Shown here: piece after piece, positions 6,427-53,098 of the stretch
How the letters are laid out: each line of letters starts with the position of its first letter
Position numbering within the stretch: the first letter of the stretch is position 1
NCBI GenBank assembly: GCA_944363635.1
Contig: CALVUP010000002.1
Location: 21,974 to 85,973 of the forward strand
Direction of reading: 5' to 3'
DNA length: 64,000 nt
Source: an uncultured Bacilli bacterium
GTDB taxonomy: Bacteria > Bacillota_I > Bacilli_A > RF39 > UBA660
Translations under genes and position numbers: made by a program
The notes under the pieces: generated by a model
Seen by the model: only the letters and a program-made list of their open reading frames with translations
Told to the model about the DNA's origin: nothing
Databases searched by the model: none

Positions 6427-6507
6427 ATGCATTCCCCCGTAAATAATATACTATTATTATAGCATTTATTGGATAAACTGTAAATCCAATTACGATTAAG
6501 TTTTTTT

Positions 6508-6521
6508 ATTTCCCGGGAAAT
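6508..6521. promoter_or_regulatory. Noc-binding-site-like palindrome ATTTCCCGGGAAAT (extended TTATTTCCCGGGAAATAA, 6506-6523)
   Basis: Perfect 14-bp match to the B. subtilis NBS consensus, abutting the tadA stop codon ~80 bp upstream of dnaX. Confidence 0.6.
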
Positions 6522-6524
6522 AAT

Positions 6525-6956: not shown

Positions 6957-6968
6957 AAAATCACCCAT

Positions 6969-7050
6969 AAAAAATGACGCACATAAAAATGAATTATTAA
7001 GGCTGCTACTTTCCAGTCCTGACCTGATTCTAATTATTCTTATTGCGTCT
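6969..7050 (-). ncRNA. ffs: small SRP RNA (4.5S-type, ~80 nt)
   Basis: Minus-strand read 5'-GACGCA..AUCAGGUCAGGACUGGAAAGUAGCAGCC..UGCGUC-UUUUUU closely matches SRP RNA domain IV (E. coli CAGGUCAGGUCCGGAAGGAAGCAGCC) with a GGAA tetraloop. Closing helix GACGCA/UGCGUC, 3' U-tract, and a TTGAAA-17-TATTAT promoter placing the TSS at about 7050. Confidence 0.7.
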
Positions 7051-7055
7051 TAGTT

Positions 7056-7084: not shown

Positions 7085-7101
7085 GTTTTTTATTCGTTCA
7101 A

Positions 7102-7117
7102 TGTTTCACGTGAAACA
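7102..7117. promoter_or_regulatory. parS site 1 (TGTTTCACGTGAAACA)
   Basis: Perfect 16-bp match to the Spo0J/ParB parS consensus, inside a 26-bp perfect palindrome (7097-7122). Confidence 0.85.
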
Positions 7118-7170
7118 TTGAATATATTATCGAATAAACTTTACTTTTTTTTGTAAATGATTAAAAAATT

Positions 7171-7184
7171 ATTTCCCAGGAAAT
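7171..7184. promoter_or_regulatory. NBS-like site (ATTTCCCAGGAAAT, one mismatch)
   Basis: 13/14 match to ATTTCCCGGGAAAT, in repeat unit 1. Confidence 0.5.
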
Positions 7185-7217
7185 ATTTTAAATAAAACGA
7201 GTATTTATTACTAATAA

Positions 7218-7233
7218 TGTTTCACGTGAAACA
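7218..7233. promoter_or_regulatory. parS site 2 (TGTTTCACGTGAAACA)
   Basis: Perfect parS consensus in repeat unit 2. Confidence 0.85.
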
Positions 7234-7283
7234 TTGAATATATTATTAAATAAACTTTATTTTTTTATAAATGATTAAAAATT

Positions 7284-7297
7284 ATTTCCCAGGAAAT
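7284..7297. promoter_or_regulatory. NBS-like site (ATTTCCCAGGAAAT)
   Basis: 13/14 match to the NBS, in repeat unit 2. Confidence 0.5.
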
Positions 7298-7330
7298 ATT
7301 TTAAATAAAATGAATGTTTATTATTAATAA

Positions 7331-7346
7331 TGTTTCACGTGAAACA
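7331..7346. promoter_or_regulatory. parS site 3 (TGTTTCACGTGAAACA)
   Basis: Perfect parS consensus in repeat unit 3. Confidence 0.85.
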
Positions 7347-7398
7347 TTGAATATTTTTTTTTGAACATAGCCTATTTTGAATAAATATTCAAAATTTT

Positions 7399-7412
7399 AT
7401 TTCCCGGGAAAT
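7399..7412. promoter_or_regulatory. NBS site (ATTTCCCGGGAAAT; 22-bp perfect palindrome 7396-7417)
   Basis: Perfect NBS consensus 10 bp downstream of the gyrA stop. Confidence 0.6.
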
Positions 7413-7426
7413 AAAAAGAAGAAATT

Positions 7427-13055: not shown

Positions 13056-13529
13056 TTATTTCATAAAATAGATATTCTTTTGATCCGTCGTACGATTTCT
13101 TAGTACCGATTCTAATCTTGTGGATCGTAAAATCTGATTTTCAATAGATCGATAAGAAACAGGAACATTCATTTTTTTCCCTTCTTTAAAATAAAGGTTT
13201 GTTGTATGATTTTCTCCTTTTTCTATTTTTTGAATATTATGCAAGGAAATCCAGATACAAGAATCTAATGCAGGTGATTCCGTTGGGAAAAAAATAATAT
13301 AATTTTCTTCTTTTACTATAATAGGTACTTTATAACTAGAACCTAATATATTTTGACTTCCACCTTTTCGCCCTTCATATGTGCTTCCAAAATATTGACA
13401 ACTCGCATCCATAATTTCATATGGATTTTTCTCCACAACAAATTCATAATCCTTTTCTAATACTTTCGTTTTCTTTTTATCAATTGGTAAAATAACTAAA
13501 GTATCCTCATTAATTTCATAACTTTTCAT
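13056..13529 (-). CDS. comK: ComK-family competence transcription factor homologue
   Basis: SYEINEDTLVILP, CQYFGSTYEGRKGGS, IIFFPTESP..C.WIS and VPVSYRSIENQ blocks align with B. subtilis ComK (SYEVNGATIAVLP, CRFFGSSYAGRKAGT, IFLFPT, LPISYNSFENQ). Confidence 0.75.
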   Translation of the reverse strand: MKSYEINEDTLVILPIDKKKTKVLEKDYEFVVEKNPYEIMDASCQYFGSTYEGRKGGSQNILGSSYKVPIIVKEENYIIFFPTESPALDSCIWISLHNIQKIEKGENHTTNLYFKEGKKMNVPVSYRSIENQILRSTRLESVLRNRTTDQKNIYFMK

Positions 13530-16225: not shown

Positions 16226-16321
16226 TTTTTTCAACACCTCCCCGCCTGAAAATAAAGGTTTGATTACCATTATTCTAAAACAAATACACAGAAAAATAAA
16301 GTAAAAAAAACATAATTTTTT

Positions 16322-18603: not shown

Positions 18604-18632
18604 GAAGGTAAATCTACGGAATGTGATTGCAT

Positions 18633-18656
18633 AAGACAAATTTTGTCTTTTTTTTA
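18633..18656 (+). terminator. rho-independent terminator after khpB
   Basis: AGACAAA/TTTGTCT stem followed by a T8 run. Confidence 0.6.
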
Positions 18657-18669
18657 TTTCCCGGGAAAT
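18656..18669. promoter_or_regulatory. NBS site ATTTCCCGGGAAAT (extended TTATTTCCCGGGAAATAA)
   Basis: Perfect NBS consensus directly after the khpB terminator, ~60 bp upstream of mnmE. Confidence 0.6.
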
Positions 18670-18729
18670 AATTTATTGAAAAAAGAAAGGGATTGTAATA
18701 TAATACGTATGAGTTAGGGAGGGATTTTT

Positions 18730-20085
18730 ATGAATGATACCATTGCAGCTATATCTACAGCTTTAGGTATTGGAGCTATATCTATTATAAGAACAAGTGG
18801 AAAAGAAGCAATTGAAATTGTAAATAAAATATTTAAAGGAAAAGATTTAACCAAAGTAGACAGTCACACAATTCATTATGGATTTATAATAGACAAAGAC
18901 GAAATTATTGATGAAGTCTTAGTATCAGTTATGAAAGCCCCTAAAACATTTACTGTAGAAGATGTCGTTGAAATTAACTGTCATGGAGGAATTGCAACGA
19001 CAAATAAAGTATTGGAATTATTACTTAGAAATGGCTGTCGTATGGCAGAACCAGGAGAATTTACGAAAAGAGCTTTTTTAAATGGAAGAATTAATTTAAT
19101 GGAAGCAGAATCTGTGATGGACTTAATTAACGGAAAAACGGATAAAGCGCGCAAATTGGCTATTAATGGCTTAAGAGGATTAACTTCGAATTTAATTAGT
19201 AATCTTAGAAAAGAAATATTGGAATTAATTGCTTCTATAGAGGTAAATATCGATTATCCAGAATATAAAGATATAGAAGAAAAAACATTAGAAGATGTAA
19301 AAACAAGTATGGATTCGATTCAAGAAAAGTTAACAAAAATTGTTAAAGATTCCGAAAATGGTAAATTAATCAAAGAAGGAATTAAAACTGTGATACTTGG
19401 AAAGCCAAATGTTGGAAAAAGTAGCATTCTAAATCGCTTATTAGATGAAGAAAAAGCAATTGTAACCGACATTGAAGGAACAACTCGAGATATCGTAGAG
19501 GGACAGATCAATATAAACGGCATCTTATTAGATATTATTGATACTGCTGGAATAAGAAAAACAAAAGATATCATTGAACAAAAAGGTGTAGAAAAAAGTT
19601 TAGAGCTTATTGATCAAGCAAATTTAATTATTATGGTATTAAATAATAATGAAAAATTAACTTTAGAAGATAAAGAATTATTAGAAAAGACAAAAAACAA
19701 AAAAAGAATTCTTGTTGTAAATAAACAAGATTTAGAAACAAAGATTGATCTTGATAAAGAATTAGAACAAGAAAGCATAAAGATTGATACCATTCATCAA
19801 GAAGGAATTCTTCCTTTAATAAATAAAATAAAAGAGCTGTTTAATATGGAAGAATTAGAAAATAGTGATTTAAATTACATTAGTAATGCTAGGCAAATTT
19901 CTCTATTAAAACAAGCATTAGAAATCATTCCTTCGATATACCAAGGGTTAAAAGATCATTTACCAATTGATATGATTGAAATTGATATAAAAGAAATATA
20001 TAACCTATTAGGAGAAGTAAATGGAGAAAGTTATTCCGATGAAATTATTGATCAATTATTTAGTCAATTCTGTCTAGGAAAATAG
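18730..20085 (+). CDS. mnmE: tRNA modification GTPase MnmE
   Basis: G domain GKPNVGKSS, C-terminal CxGK. Confidence 0.95.
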   Translation: MNDTIAAISTALGIGAISIIRTSGKEAIEIVNKIFKGKDLTKVDSHTIHYGFIIDKDEIIDEVLVSVMKAPKTFTVEDVVEINCHGGIATTNKVLELLLRNGCRMAEPGEFTKRAFLNGRINLMEAESVMDLINGKTDKARKLAINGLRGLTSNLISNLRKEILELIASIEVNIDYPEYKDIEEKTLEDVKTSMDSIQEKLTKIVKDSENGKLIKEGIKTVILGKPNVGKSSILNRLLDEEKAIVTDIEGTTRDIVEGQININGILLDIIDTAGIRKTKDIIEQKGVEKSLELIDQANLIIMVLNNNEKLTLEDKELLEKTKNKKRILVVNKQDLETKIDLDKELEQESIKIDTIHQEGILPLINKIKELFNMEELENSDLNYISNARQISLLKQALEIIPSIYQGLKDHLPIDMIEIDIKEIYNLLGEVNGESYSDEIIDQLFSQFCLGK

Positions 20086-20093
20086 AAAAAATT

Positions 20094-20107
20094 ATTTCCC
20101 GGGAAAT
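20094..20107. promoter_or_regulatory. NBS site ATTTCCCGGGAAAT (24-bp perfect palindrome 20088-20111)
   Basis: Perfect NBS consensus 9 bp after the mnmE stop and ~25 bp before mnmG. Confidence 0.6.
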
Positions 20108-20134
20108 AATTTAATAAAATGGAAGTGAAAATAT

Positions 20135-22732: not shown

Positions 22733-24055
22733 ATGTTTATGGATAACAGTAATGAAAAAAACGAAGTAGTTTATTTATATTTAGATGATATCATTCCAAA
22801 TCGATTTCAACCAAGAGAAAGATTTGATGAGGGGGCATTAAGGGAATTAGCAGCTTCGATCAAAGAACACGGAGTTATTCAACCAATTATTGTTCGAAAA
22901 ATCGGAGACAAATATGAGATCATTGCTGGAGAAAGAAGATATAAAGCTTCCGCTTTAGCAGGACTTACAAAAATCCCTGCAATTATTCGAAATTTAGATG
23001 ATAAAGAATCAAGTAAAGTAGCCCTTTTGGAAAATTTACAAAGAAAAAATTTAAGTCCAATAGAGGAAGCACGAACTTATCAAAAAATCTTAGATTTGGA
23101 TCAAATGACACAGTTTGAATTAGCAAAAACCATGGGAAAATCACAACCCGTTGTAGCAAATAAATTAAGATTGCTTACTCTTCCTGATGAGGTACAAGAA
23201 GCGTTATTAAAAGAGCAAATTTCAGAAAGACATGCCCGTAGTTTATTAGCGCTAAATAACGCAGAAGATCAAATAGAGATGCTACATAAAATAATTAATA
23301 ATCGGATGACAGTTCGTGAAACGGATGAAGAAATAAGAAAAATGACAAATACTGCAAATTTTGGATTACCAGGATTAGAAAGTACACATGTTGAGAAAAC
23401 AGAACCTAAAAATCAAATGGAGCAACCAATGCCAAAACCTACACAAATCAATGTTCAACCACAAAAAAGTACTGTAATGCCACAAATGCCAAACTATGAA
23501 GTCAATCAAAATATTGCTACTATTCCAGATGTGAACACATTAAGAGAACAGGCTGTGGATATAAACGATTTAAACAAAATGCCTACGAATGTTGCTCCAA
23601 CAGCTGTATCTCAAAATGAAGGAAAACAAGAAGAAGCAATTCAACCTGTATTACCTGAAATATCTGAAAGTGATCAGGATAAACCATTTATTGATTTAGA
23701 AGAACTGTTAAAAACACCAGAGACTGTACCTATTGAAGAACAACCACCAAAGCAAGATCCACCAAAAGAAGAAACCGAAGAGTTATTAGAAAAAATTGAA
23801 ACATCTGAATCTCAAGCATTAGAAGAAACCTTAGATGTTGAAAAATTAGATGACACACCAAAGCCAAAAGCTTCAGAGGAAAAGCCATTACCTTCTGTTA
23901 TAGATACAAAATCAATAAATGTATTTGATTTACGATTAGCAATTTCAACGATTCGAGATACAATTAAACAATTAGAAGATAAAGGAATAAATATAGATAC
24001 TGAGGAAATTGATTTTGAAGACCATTATCAAATAGTAGTCAAAATTCAAAAATAA
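22733..24055 (+). CDS. noc: Noc-like ParB paralogue with a long acidic/Pro-rich internal insertion
   Basis: ParB N-domain GERRYKA. The HTH region GKSQPVVANKLRLLTLP aligns with B. subtilis Noc (GKGQSTIANKLRLLKLP), not with Spo0J. C-terminal dimerisation segment is also Noc-like. A ~190-aa low-complexity insertion lies between them. Start at 22733 or 22739. Confidence 0.7.
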   Translation: MFMDNSNEKNEVVYLYLDDIIPNRFQPRERFDEGALRELAASIKEHGVIQPIIVRKIGDKYEIIAGERRYKASALAGLTKIPAIIRNLDDKESSKVALLENLQRKNLSPIEEARTYQKILDLDQMTQFELAKTMGKSQPVVANKLRLLTLPDEVQEALLKEQISERHARSLLALNNAEDQIEMLHKIINNRMTVRETDEEIRKMTNTANFGLPGLESTHVEKTEPKNQMEQPMPKPTQINVQPQKSTVMPQMPNYEVNQNIATIPDVNTLREQAVDINDLNKMPTNVAPTAVSQNEGKQEEAIQPVLPEISESDQDKPFIDLEELLKTPETVPIEEQPPKQDPPKEETEELLEKIETSESQALEETLDVEKLDDTPKPKASEEKPLPSVIDTKSINVFDLRLAISTIRDTIKQLEDKGINIDTEEIDFEDHYQIVVKIQK

Positions 24056-24164: not shown

Positions 24165-24953
24165 ATGAGTAAAGTTATTTCGTTAGTAAATCAAAAAGGA
24201 GGAGTCGGTAAAACGACGACAAGCATAAACTTATCATCTTCTTTAGCAGTATTAGGAAAAAGAGTATTATTAATCGATTTAGATCCTCAAGGAAATACAA
24301 CCACAGGTATAGGAATTAATAAAGGAGAAATAGACAAAAGTATTTATGATGTGTTAACTGGGAATTGTACAATACAAGAAGCAATGGTAAAAACAAAATA
24401 TCAAAATTTATTTGTATTACCATCATCTATTAATTTAGCGGGAATTGATATGGAATTAATGGAAAAAAGTAGAAATGATGTTACTTATGATAAAAGAAGA
24501 CAATTAAAAAAGCATTTAGATACTGTCTCAGATTATTTTGATTTTGTAATTATTGATTGTCCACCTTCTTTAGGATTAATCACGACCAACGCTTTAACAG
24601 CTTCTAACTCAGTAATGATACCCGTTCAATGTGAATTTTACGCTTTAGAGGGAATTACGCAATTGTTAAATACAATTATATTGGCCCAAAAAAACTTAAA
24701 TCCAAATCTTGAAATTGAAGGAGTTCTATTAACTATGTTGGATTCAAGAACCAATTTGGGATTAGAAATTGTTGAAGAAATACGAAAATATTTTAAAGAA
24801 AAAGTATATGATACAATCATTCCTAGATTAATTCGTTTATCTGAAGCACCATCTCATGGAAAACCTATCATTGCTTACGATCCTAAAAGTAGAGGTGCAG
24901 AGGCTTATCTAAATTTAGCAAAGGAAGTGATTTCTAAGAATGGAAACGTCTAA
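24165..24953 (+). CDS. soj: chromosome partitioning ATPase ParA/Soj
   Basis: Deviant Walker A KGGVGKTTT, 262 aa. Confidence 0.9.
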   Translation: MSKVISLVNQKGGVGKTTTSINLSSSLAVLGKRVLLIDLDPQGNTTTGIGINKGEIDKSIYDVLTGNCTIQEAMVKTKYQNLFVLPSSINLAGIDMELMEKSRNDVTYDKRRQLKKHLDTVSDYFDFVIIDCPPSLGLITTNALTASNSVMIPVQCEFYALEGITQLLNTIILAQKNLNPNLEIEGVLLTMLDSRTNLGLEIVEEIRKYFKEKVYDTIIPRLIRLSEAPSHGKPIIAYDPKSRGAEAYLNLAKEVISKNGNV

Positions 24954-25818
24954 AAGAAGAGCTTTAGGTAGAGGATTGGAAGAATTATTTAGTAATGAAC
25001 CTATTGCTTATAATAAAGTAGAAAGTAAAATATTAGAAGAAACACCAAAAGAAAACATAGTAGAATTAAATTTGGATGAATTAAGGGCAAATCCTTATCA
25101 ACCAAGAAAAGTCTTTGATGAAGAAGCACTAAAAGAGTTAGCAGCTTCTATTAAAGAACATGGTGTTTTTCAACCAATCATTGCAAAAAAAAGTATAAAA
25201 GGTTATGAAATTATTGCTGGAGAAAGAAGAGTAAAAGCTTCAAAACTAGCAGGATTAAAAACAATTCCAGCCATTGTTCGAGATTTTACAGACAATGAAA
25301 TGATGGAAATTGCCCTTCTAGAGAACTTACAAAGGGAAAATTTAACTGCTATAGAAGAAGCTGAAGCATATAAAAATTTGTTAGATACATTAGATATAAC
25401 CCAAGAAAAGTTAGCAGAACGAATTGGCAAAAGTCGTAGTTATATTACCAATATGCTTGGGTTATTAAACTTACCAGATAATGTTAAAAAACTACTTGAA
25501 GAAAAAAAGATTACGATGAGTCATGCTCGAGTTTTAAGTAAAATTGAGGATGAACAAAAAATTACGGAGCTTGCTAATAAGATTATAGCAGAAAATTTAA
25601 ATGTTCGTGATATAGAAGAAATTTCCAAAGATCATCATATCAAAAAGACAAAAGAAAATAAAAAGCATAGTGAAACAAATGAATATACTTATATTGAAAA
25701 TGAATTGTGTGAAAAATTTGGTACAAAAGTAAAAGTAAAAACAAACAAATTAGAAATTTCCTTTTCCAACATTAATGATTTAAATAGAATATTAGAAATC
25801 ATGAAGATTCATTTATAG
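24940..25818 (+). CDS. spo0J: chromosome partitioning protein ParB/Spo0J
   Basis: GERR box, HTH GKSRSYITNMLGLLNLP with ParB-type R/T specificity residues. Confidence 0.9.
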   Translation: METSKRRALGRGLEELFSNEPIAYNKVESKILEETPKENIVELNLDELRANPYQPRKVFDEEALKELAASIKEHGVFQPIIAKKSIKGYEIIAGERRVKASKLAGLKTIPAIVRDFTDNEMMEIALLENLQRENLTAIEEAEAYKNLLDTLDITQEKLAERIGKSRSYITNMLGLLNLPDNVKKLLEEKKITMSHARVLSKIEDEQKITELANKIIAENLNVRDIEEISKDHHIKKTKENKKHSETNEYTYIENELCEKFGTKVKVKTNKLEISFSNINDLNRILEIMKIHL

Positions 25819-53020: not shown

Positions 53021-53098
53021 AAATAAAATTATTGATATAATAATTTCGCATTTAATTACTATGATTAATATTTAATCATGGCGGAAGGAGAGATAAGT

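Follow-up and report, generated by a model that had tools for sequence, protein, structure and literature searches.

We analyzed a stretch of 64,000 nucleotides (the window) from an uncultured Bacilli bacterium (assembly GCA_944363635.1, contig CALVUP010000002.1), which carries the neighborhood of the replication origin, oriC, and within it four perfect palindromes that share the core of the published binding site of Noc, a protein of nucleoid occlusion (Noc-binding site, NBS). The window has a G+C content of 28-29%, and its GC skew flips sign at ~16 kb, adjoining dnaA; because of this change of sign, we placed oriC beside dnaA. The left arm, on the minus strand, reads rsmI, a gene for a TrmN-like methyltransferase, ricT, holB, recR, dnaX, tadA and the gene for the small signal recognition particle (SRP) RNA, followed by an array of parS and NBS sites, gyrA, gyrB, recF, a ComK-like open reading frame (ORF), dnaN and dnaA. 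On the plus strand follows the right arm, with rnpA, yidC, khpB/jag, mnmE, mnmG, rsmG, a gene for a 440-aa ParB-family protein (the Noc paralogue below), parA and parB. Coordinates are collected in Table 1.

Four palindromes with a common core lie on both sides of oriC

The hexamer CCCGGG occurs four times in the window, at 6512, 7403, 18660 and 20098. Dinucleotide-preserving shuffles gave a mean count of 0.87, and none of 100 shuffles reached four. All four occurrences fall inside the 14-mer ATTTCCCGGGAAAT and, one base wider on each side, inside the 16-mer TATTTCCCGGGAAATA, for which the expected count is 0.00. A sequence-only reading of this DNA had described perfect dyads of 18-24 bp on the two sides of mnmE and had stated that every CCCGGG of the window lies within the same extended dyad; both statements proved accurate, and from left to right the four dyads measure 18, 22, 18 and 24 bp. 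Its placement of the second mnmE-flanking copy was likewise exact: the mnmE stop codon occupies 20083-20085, and the 14-mer at 20094 begins 9 nt past its last base.

With the dnaA start (16270) as reference, two exact sites are ~9.8 and ~8.9 kb away on the left and the other two ~2.4 and ~3.8 kb away on the right, and no further copy was found between 20.1 and 64 kb of the window at up to two mismatches. The khpB/jag-side site sits between the khpB terminator hairpin and the -35 element of a promoter-like site for mnmE; the hairpin reads AAGACAAA-ttt-TGTCTT, and its T-run is overlapped by the 14-mer at 18656. All four sites lie 1-50 nt 3' of a stop codon, and the genes that precede them (tadA, gyrA, khpB and mnmE) are all transcribed away from oriC.

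Table 1. Features of the window, and selected sites at related loci (handles beginning with L).
Feature	Position	Strand	Details
NBS palindrome between tadA stop and dnaX promoter-like site	6506-6523		18-bp dyad; core 6507-6522
Bacterial small SRP RNA	6968-7054	minus	Rfam match; directly adjoins the parS/NBS array
Tandem parS/NBS array	7100-7413		period ~113 bp; between SRP RNA gene and gyrA
parS	7102-7117, 7218-7233, 7331-7346		TGTTTCACGTGAAACA; perfect consensus
NBS-like sites	7170-7185, 7283-7298		TATTTCCCAGGAAATA; array then closed by the exact NBS 7398-7413
NBS palindrome 10 nt 3' of gyrA stop	7395-7416		22-bp dyad; core 7398-7413; end of parS/NBS array
dnaA	14855-16270	minus	start at 16270
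khpB/jag intrinsic terminator	18633-18655	plus	hairpin AAGACAAA/TTTGTCTT, then T-run entering the NBS
NBS palindrome after khpB/jag	18654-18671		18-bp perfect dyad TTATTTCCCGGGAAATAA; core 18655-18670
Promoter-like site before mnmE	18676-18704		TTGAAA-17-TATAAT
NBS palindrome in mnmE-mnmG gap	20089-20112		24-bp perfect dyad AAATTATTTCCCGGGAAATAATTT; core 20093-20108
noc paralogue	22733-24055	plus	440 aa; rsmG-noc-parA-parB position
parA	24165-24953	plus	soj-type ATPase
parB	24940-25818	plus	spo0J-type; helix-turn-helix R173/M179/N184/S201; presumed reader of parS
NBS copies inside ORFs, relatives	L004 20673; L012 20775; L031 20715; L033 20771; L050 20682; L076 21194		
Further strictly alternating arrays, relatives	L063 19442-20451; L061 18942-19840; L070 18920-20250; L055 18842-19680		
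polA-flanking NBS, relatives	L087 7783; L168 9357; L119 1990; L169 5297; L136 1947, 4886		

The cores are exact copies of the published Noc-binding site

The consensus sequences that Jalal et al. used in their experiments are TATTTCCC-GGGAAATA for NBS and TGTTTCAC-GTGAAACA for parS (PMC7383237). The two differ at two positions per half-site, and the window holds exact copies of both: at positions 1 and 6, its NBS half-sites carry A and C, and its parS sites carry G and A.

The site is conserved as a unit in related origin regions

Relatives were collected by a DnaA-based scan that took one genome per species and yielded 80 loci from uncultured gut Bacilli with DnaA identities of 59-87%; together with the window, the comparison covers 1.40 Mb. 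Named relatives include Candidatus Scybalousia and Candidatus Faecimonas, with the NCBI filing 'Bacilli incertae sedis'. Two of the 80 loci come from closed chromosomes of 1.3-1.5 Mb, OZ006970.1 (1.52 Mb) and OZ006981.1 (1.31 Mb), and the gene order of the origin region is conserved among the relatives. Several records of metagenome-assembled genomes, among them L002, L006, L008, L014 and L030, bear implausible labels (Muribaculaceae, Methanobrevibacter, Mycoplasma, Tenericutes); their origin regions clearly belong to the same Bacilli clade.

Counting across these loci revealed 187 copies of CCCGGG, of which 186 lie within an exact 14-mer NBS and one is cut by the end of its locus. Other hexamers made entirely of G and C occur 2-39 times, and the other palindromic ones among them 2-14 times (GGGCCC 3, CGCGCG 2). 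Nearly all of the NBS copies (180/186) lie outside ORFs of at least 120 aa, while such ORFs cover 86.7% of the DNA; the two around mnmE would lie between genes because a palindrome of 16-24 bp cannot be accommodated in coding sequence. All six copies inside ORFs have a similar position from locus to locus, in the stretch that matches dnaX (Table 1); the dnaX of the window has none.

Orthologous gaps carry the site either whole or not at all. An exact 16-mer is present in 15 of 60 mnmE-mnmG gaps (14 relatives and the window), every other gap having at least five mismatches, and in six khpB-mnmE gaps (five relatives and the window). This all-or-none pattern argues for purifying selection on a protein site. 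The closest relative, L002, with a DnaA 87% identical to that of the window, has an eroded copy, aattatttcctagaaataattt, in its mnmE-mnmG gap at about 6030, which shows that individual satellite sites have recently been lost or gained. A conserved coupling of the khpB-side site to the mnmE promoter was considered and rejected: the spacing is common to L003 only and not to other relatives.

Conservation extends past the core. In the clade, the flanking position 0 is T in 100% of copies, position -1 is T in 85%, and positions -2, -3 and -4 are A in 92%, 88% and 83%, respectively, so that the effective site of the clade is the 24-bp palindrome AAATTATTTCCCGGGAAATAATTT, longer than the published 16 bp. 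Among the copies with one mismatch in the window and the 80 loci, 16 of 22 carry the same change, a transition of the central CpG to CpA/TpG that gives ATTTCCCAGGAAAT (for example L004 20718, L009 11790 and L014 18969). Its recurrence could mean that Noc tolerates changes at the innermost base, or it could reflect deamination of methyl-cytosine.

The latter possibility bears on an alternative that the sequence-only reading had itself raised, namely that CCCGGG is a restriction-modification target of the SmaI/XmaI type, rare through avoidance and surviving where it is protected. CCCGGG is indeed a classic type II site, it is absent outside NBS from all 1.40 Mb, and the recurrent CpG transition is what deamination of a methylated inner cytosine predicts. 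The counts, however, speak of enrichment and not of avoidance, since CCCGGG is by far the most frequent hexamer of its class, and its absence outside NBS falls within the range of its peers, some of which occur only two or three times in total. Moreover, conservation over 16-24 bp reaches far past a 6-bp restriction target, the sites are paired with parS in the arrays described below, and no candidate DNA methyltransferase or endonuclease was found among those ORFs of the 64-kb window that were annotated, a part of the total. We therefore regard a restriction-modification origin as extremely improbable.

Perfect dyads placed shortly behind stop codons are also foldable, as would suit RNA hairpins that act at gene 3' ends as intrinsic or bidirectional terminators or as attenuators. 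The predicted hairpins are weak, however: three folds that contain a palindrome only gave -3.2 to -6.5 kcal/mol, and z-scores over all folds ranged from -0.14 to -1.07. The fold of 18620-18680 reached -8.8 kcal/mol, but it includes the khpB terminator hairpin. None of the four palindromes is followed by a U-tract, the terminator scan calls none of them, and upstream of the NBS khpB is already served by a hairpin and T-run of its own. Furthermore, what is invariant in the clade is the sequence and not the potential for pairing: compensatory variants are missing, and all complete copies have the same 14-mer. A terminator also need not alternate with parS. Taken together, these observations leave the hairpin explanation a very small chance.

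A Noc paralogue with NBS-type specificity residues is encoded nearby

The presumptive reader of the sites is the 440-aa protein encoded between rsmG and parA. It consists of a ParB-type domain that binds cytidine triphosphate (CTP) at its N-terminus, a helix-turn-helix, an acidic linker of ~190 aa and a Noc-type C-terminal domain. Against the NCBIfam model TIGR04285, 'nucleoid occlusion protein', it scored 305.9 bits (1.9e-91), and its last 47 aa match profile positions 213-255, the Noc-specific C-terminal end. The best matches in the PDB are Noc of Geobacillus thermoleovorans (7NFU, 216.6 bits, and 7NG0) and Noc of B. subtilis (7OL9, 183.8 bits); Spo0J/ParB (1VZ0) scored lower, at 175.6 bits. 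Alignment to the Noc structures revealed intact copies of the CTP-binding motifs GERRxR and ENLQR (IIAGERRYKAS and LLENLQRKNL).

In the published numbering, the specificity residues of the window protein are Q173, K179, T184 and R201, three of the four members of the Q-K-K-R set. Q173 recognizes adenine 1, and R201 cytosine 6, given a lysine at 179, at 184 or at both (PMC7383237); because one lysine, at one or the other of these positions, is enough (PMC7383237), the Q-K-T-R protein of the window is expected to be NBS-specific. We scored 56 Noc paralogues, from the window and 55 related species: Q173 and K179 are present in all 56, residue 201 is R in all but one, where it is K, and residue 184 is never K, nearly all of the proteins having one of S, A, T and G there. 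A Q-K-x-R/K paralogue is present in 55 of 55 relatives in which the noc region is covered. Co-occurrence of NBS and noc was tried as a discriminating test and set aside as uninformative, since every covered relative has the paralogue; a few loci with noc (L025, for example) had no NBS within the 21 kb taken.

The interpretation of the palindromes as Noc-type sites, which the sequence-only reading had preferred to chance, is thus supported by the exact consensus sequence, by the presence next door of a predicted reader with Q173, K179 and R201, and by synteny. We consider it very likely that the palindromes are the loading (nucleation) sites of the Noc paralogue encoded 2.6 kb downstream.

NBS and parS alternate in tandem arrays behind gyrA

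Three of the window's NBS or NBS-like sites belong to a composite array 3' of gyrA, a feature absent from the sequence-only reading, as are the tight clustering around the origin, closer than in model organisms, and the helix-less Noc described below. Here three parS are interleaved with two one-mismatch NBS copies, ATTTCCCAGGAAAT, at 7171 and 7284 (7171-7184 and 7284-7297), and the exact NBS nearest gyrA closes the series.

Such arrays are a regular feature of the clade. Of 48 species with at least 600 bp read 3' of gyrA, 45 have both NBS and parS there, with a median of three NBS and three parS and a maximum of 13 NBS with 10 parS; the window array is a short example. The alternation is regular: NBS and parS in the arrays are separated by 27-70 bp, with start-to-start distances that fall into classes of 27-28, 32-37, 46-47 and 57-60 bp, and for 136 of 194 NBS there is a parS no more than 80 bp away. 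Unit length varies from 76 to ~260 bp. Units are near-identical within a species, and between species the spacers are unrelated in both length and sequence, only the two 16-bp cores being common. Four further strictly alternating arrays are listed in Table 1.

The closeness of NBS to parS admits another explanation, that another protein, be it ParB or some further factor, reads the NBS in full or in part. A clade ParB with S201 and relaxed specificity for parS and NBS would be an example, the arrays then being a single ParB centromere. The ParB of the window does carry S201, as do 17 of 38 clade ParBs; G201 has been reported as absolutely conserved in extant ParBs, and most variants of dual parS/NBS specificity carry T or S there. 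ParB partners in the clade nevertheless keep R173, with G or S at 201, and lack lysine or arginine at 179 (M) and 184 (N, S or T), the permissive residues that prevail in NBS binders. S201 occurs among parS-specific variants too, clade members whose ParB has G201 have the same arrays, and a dedicated Q-K-x-R paralogue is kept in every relative scored. Reading by ParB is, on this evidence, highly unlikely, and reading of the NBS by the Noc paralogue is the interpretation followed below.

NBS cluster around oriC

To the DnaA-based set we added a blind metagenome scan for the 22-mer AATTATTTCCCGGGAAATAATT, which returned at least 120 loci. Among the loci listed, 100 of 120 carry genes of the recR-to-parB stretch, eight more carry the adjacent rsmI-to-holB genes and two are bare arrays, placing at least 110 of the 120 in the oriC gene neighborhood. 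Together with the intergenic bias reported above, this result strengthens the sequence-only claim that placement of the sites is non-random, in gaps and near the origin. Among the remaining ten loci, five have sites that flank polA, in the gaps dnaE|polA or polA|fpg (Table 1), one of these lying ~20 kb from tadA/dnaX/recR on the same contig. L136 has an NBS on each side of polA, like the pair around mnmE. Further recurrent positions among the matches listed are the gaps recF|gyrB and dnaX|recR.

Roughly two dozen origin-bearing contigs exceed 100 kb (the largest measuring 580 and 342 kb), and each has one cluster among the matches listed. On the contigs read, no complete genome among them, the NBS appear to be confined to a few tens of kb around oriC.

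This confinement also bears on the idea that the palindromes are a small mobile or recombination-spread element, resembling repetitive extragenic palindromes or miniature inverted-repeat transposable elements, with no role in protein binding. The same 24-bp palindrome does recur at different intergenic positions, its presence or absence is all-or-none between species, and arrays grow by tandem duplication. The copies are, however, confined to one chromosomal neighborhood instead of being dispersed, nothing past the 24 bp is common between sites, and the core coincides with a protein site known from experiment, the gene for its reader lying close by. We find a mobile element barely credible as an explanation. 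An origin from phage or other mobile DNA was separately rejected: 2.9 million viral contigs gave two hits, of unrelated base composition and without similarity to proteins of the window.

The Noc paralogues lack the membrane-targeting helix

In B. subtilis, Noc has a 10-residue N-terminal amphipathic helix that is needed for both membrane binding and nucleoid occlusion, and alpha1 and alpha2 are Noc-family-specific helices (PMC8429893). No N-terminal amphipathic helix is present in the window protein, which begins 24 residues before the FQPR motif, an in-frame stop preceding its start by three codons; when it is aligned to 7NFU, its residue 3 pairs with chain residue 19. None of the 56 clade paralogues has room for the helix, the upstream stop lying 18-49 codons before FQPR.

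The paralogues have instead a long linker, which joins the DNA-binding domain to the C-terminal one and measures 81-274 aa (median 191). This linker is strongly acidic, its net charge having a median of -19. In the window protein the charge is -22, and the linker is probably disordered by composition, with 42% polar residues plus Pro and Gly. Such a linker is unlikely to bind membrane. Many of the clade paralogues share recurrent linker motifs, PKFINYGEI(D)n, IDINxIKxNAxDIN and DLDSLLN; in the window linker, the first and last of these are weak or absent. Because the window protein has no membrane-targeting helix, its output is probably not canonical membrane tethering.

Several points weigh against the reading of these sites as part of a Noc system. 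Firstly, the score of the paralogue against TIGR04285 is below the curated cut-off of 315, a shortfall that fits the missing N-terminus and the inserted linker; secondly, the helix required for nucleoid occlusion in B. subtilis is the very part that is missing, and the canonical output is not simply transferable to this clade; thirdly, conservation of the flanks out to 24 bp might reflect extra protein contacts or another reader; fourthly, the 22-mer of the metagenome scan captures about half of the sites, and the count of a single cluster per contig assumes that every match on a contig was reported.

A model for two clamps loaded at the origin

By the mechanism published for this family, a dimer of Noc would recognize the 16-bp core through its helix-turn-helix, with Q173 on A1 and R201 on C6. 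By analogy with characterized members, it would then take up CTP, close as a clamp and slide onto the flanking DNA. The predicted product is a continuous Noc-coated domain of ~25-30 kb centered on oriC, which would overlap a ParB domain seeded by the three parS of the array; the two sites beside mnmE would be right-arm members of the origin set. One conceivable effect of the placement of NBS at gene 3' ends is that RNA polymerase pushes the clamps.

The output is the weakest step of this scheme, and we can only infer it: inhibition of division over unsegregated origins, origin positioning and control of initiation are all candidates. In B. subtilis, Spo0J and Noc act together against premature Z rings (PMC6852036), an analogy that is at least compatible with a joint, origin-centered function here. 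Our tentative proposal, which we put forward as possible and somewhat doubtful, is that Noc in this clade may have changed from a chromosome-wide membrane tether to an origin-specific partner of ParB, both clamps being loaded from a 'double centromere' near gyrA and from a few satellite NBS like the pair beside mnmE, and that the helix-less Noc may recruit a partner through its linker motifs.

Although the clade has retained both the exact NBS and the NBS-specific residues, it has lost the only element known to give Noc its output. It thus offers natural experiments on what a Noc clamp does without membrane binding, on whether two paralogous sliding clamps that load next to one another work together, collide or insulate each other, and on how cross-talk between ParB and Noc is avoided where many ParBs carry S201.

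Comparison with known systems

Taken by themselves, the palindromes belong to a known class of element and add a new host to it. The arrangement around them departs from what is known in three ways: firstly, the NBS are concentrated at the origin; secondly, they are regularly interdigitated with parS; thirdly, the Noc paralogue is helix-less and has a long linker throughout the clade. In the open-access literature we found no description of interleaved or tandem parS/NBS arrays, of parS alternating regularly with the loading site of a second clamp, or of a helix-less Noc.

The closest known system is Noc/NBS of B. subtilis (Wu et al. 2009; Adams et al. 2015; Jalal et al. 2020, 2021), which has the identical 16-bp consensus. 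Both systems have a ParB-derived, CTP-binding protein with Q173, K179, R201 and a Noc-type C-terminal domain, encoded between rsmG and soj-spo0J, and the sites known in both lie toward the origin. The NBS of B. subtilis and S. aureus, however, extend over two thirds or half of the chromosome, on the side of the origin (PMC5540599), whereas those of the window clade appear gathered in the few tens of kb next to oriC and form tandem arrays with parS. Unlike B. subtilis Noc, the window protein has K184 replaced and an acidic linker in place of the helix, and the site flanks in its clade are conserved to 24 bp.

S. aureus Noc (Pang et al. 2017, PMC5540599) recognizes the same core consensus. Its enrichment in chromatin immunoprecipitation spans 8-10 kb around the sites, as reported for B. 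subtilis too (PMC5540599), and its minor binding beside dnaA and its part in holding back the initiation of replication (PMC5540599) make it a precedent for an origin-directed function. S. aureus differs in having 41 sites over ~700 kb on either side of the origin and a membrane-associated Noc, and no parS/NBS arrays have been described in it (PMC5540599).

ParB-parS centromeres are similar in that they, too, are clusters of 16-bp palindromes near the origin, at which CTP-dependent sliding clamps are loaded; the difference is that the NBS of the window are predicted to be read by a paralogue. The iterated centromeres of plasmids (sopC of F, parC of R1) and the RacA-ram system of B. subtilis likewise gather many short sites at one locus or origin region into a large nucleoprotein complex. 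Each of these, however, uses a single protein and a single type of site, whereas the window system has two paralogous clamps with interdigitated sites. In Escherichia coli, SlmA is a site-specific nucleoid-occlusion factor whose SlmA-binding sites are not known from the terminus; it is an unrelated protein of the TetR family with an unrelated site, and it acts directly on FtsZ.

Other features of the window

Apart from the SRP RNA, a match in Rfam identified an L31-Firmicutes ribosomal leader at 53059-53090 on the plus strand. The ComK-like ORF (157 aa; 13056-13529, minus strand) lies between dnaN and recF, where B. subtilis has yaaA. It gave no match in NCBIfam; the match on record is to the ComK family of Pfam, and the ORF is kept in relatives at 32-66% identity.

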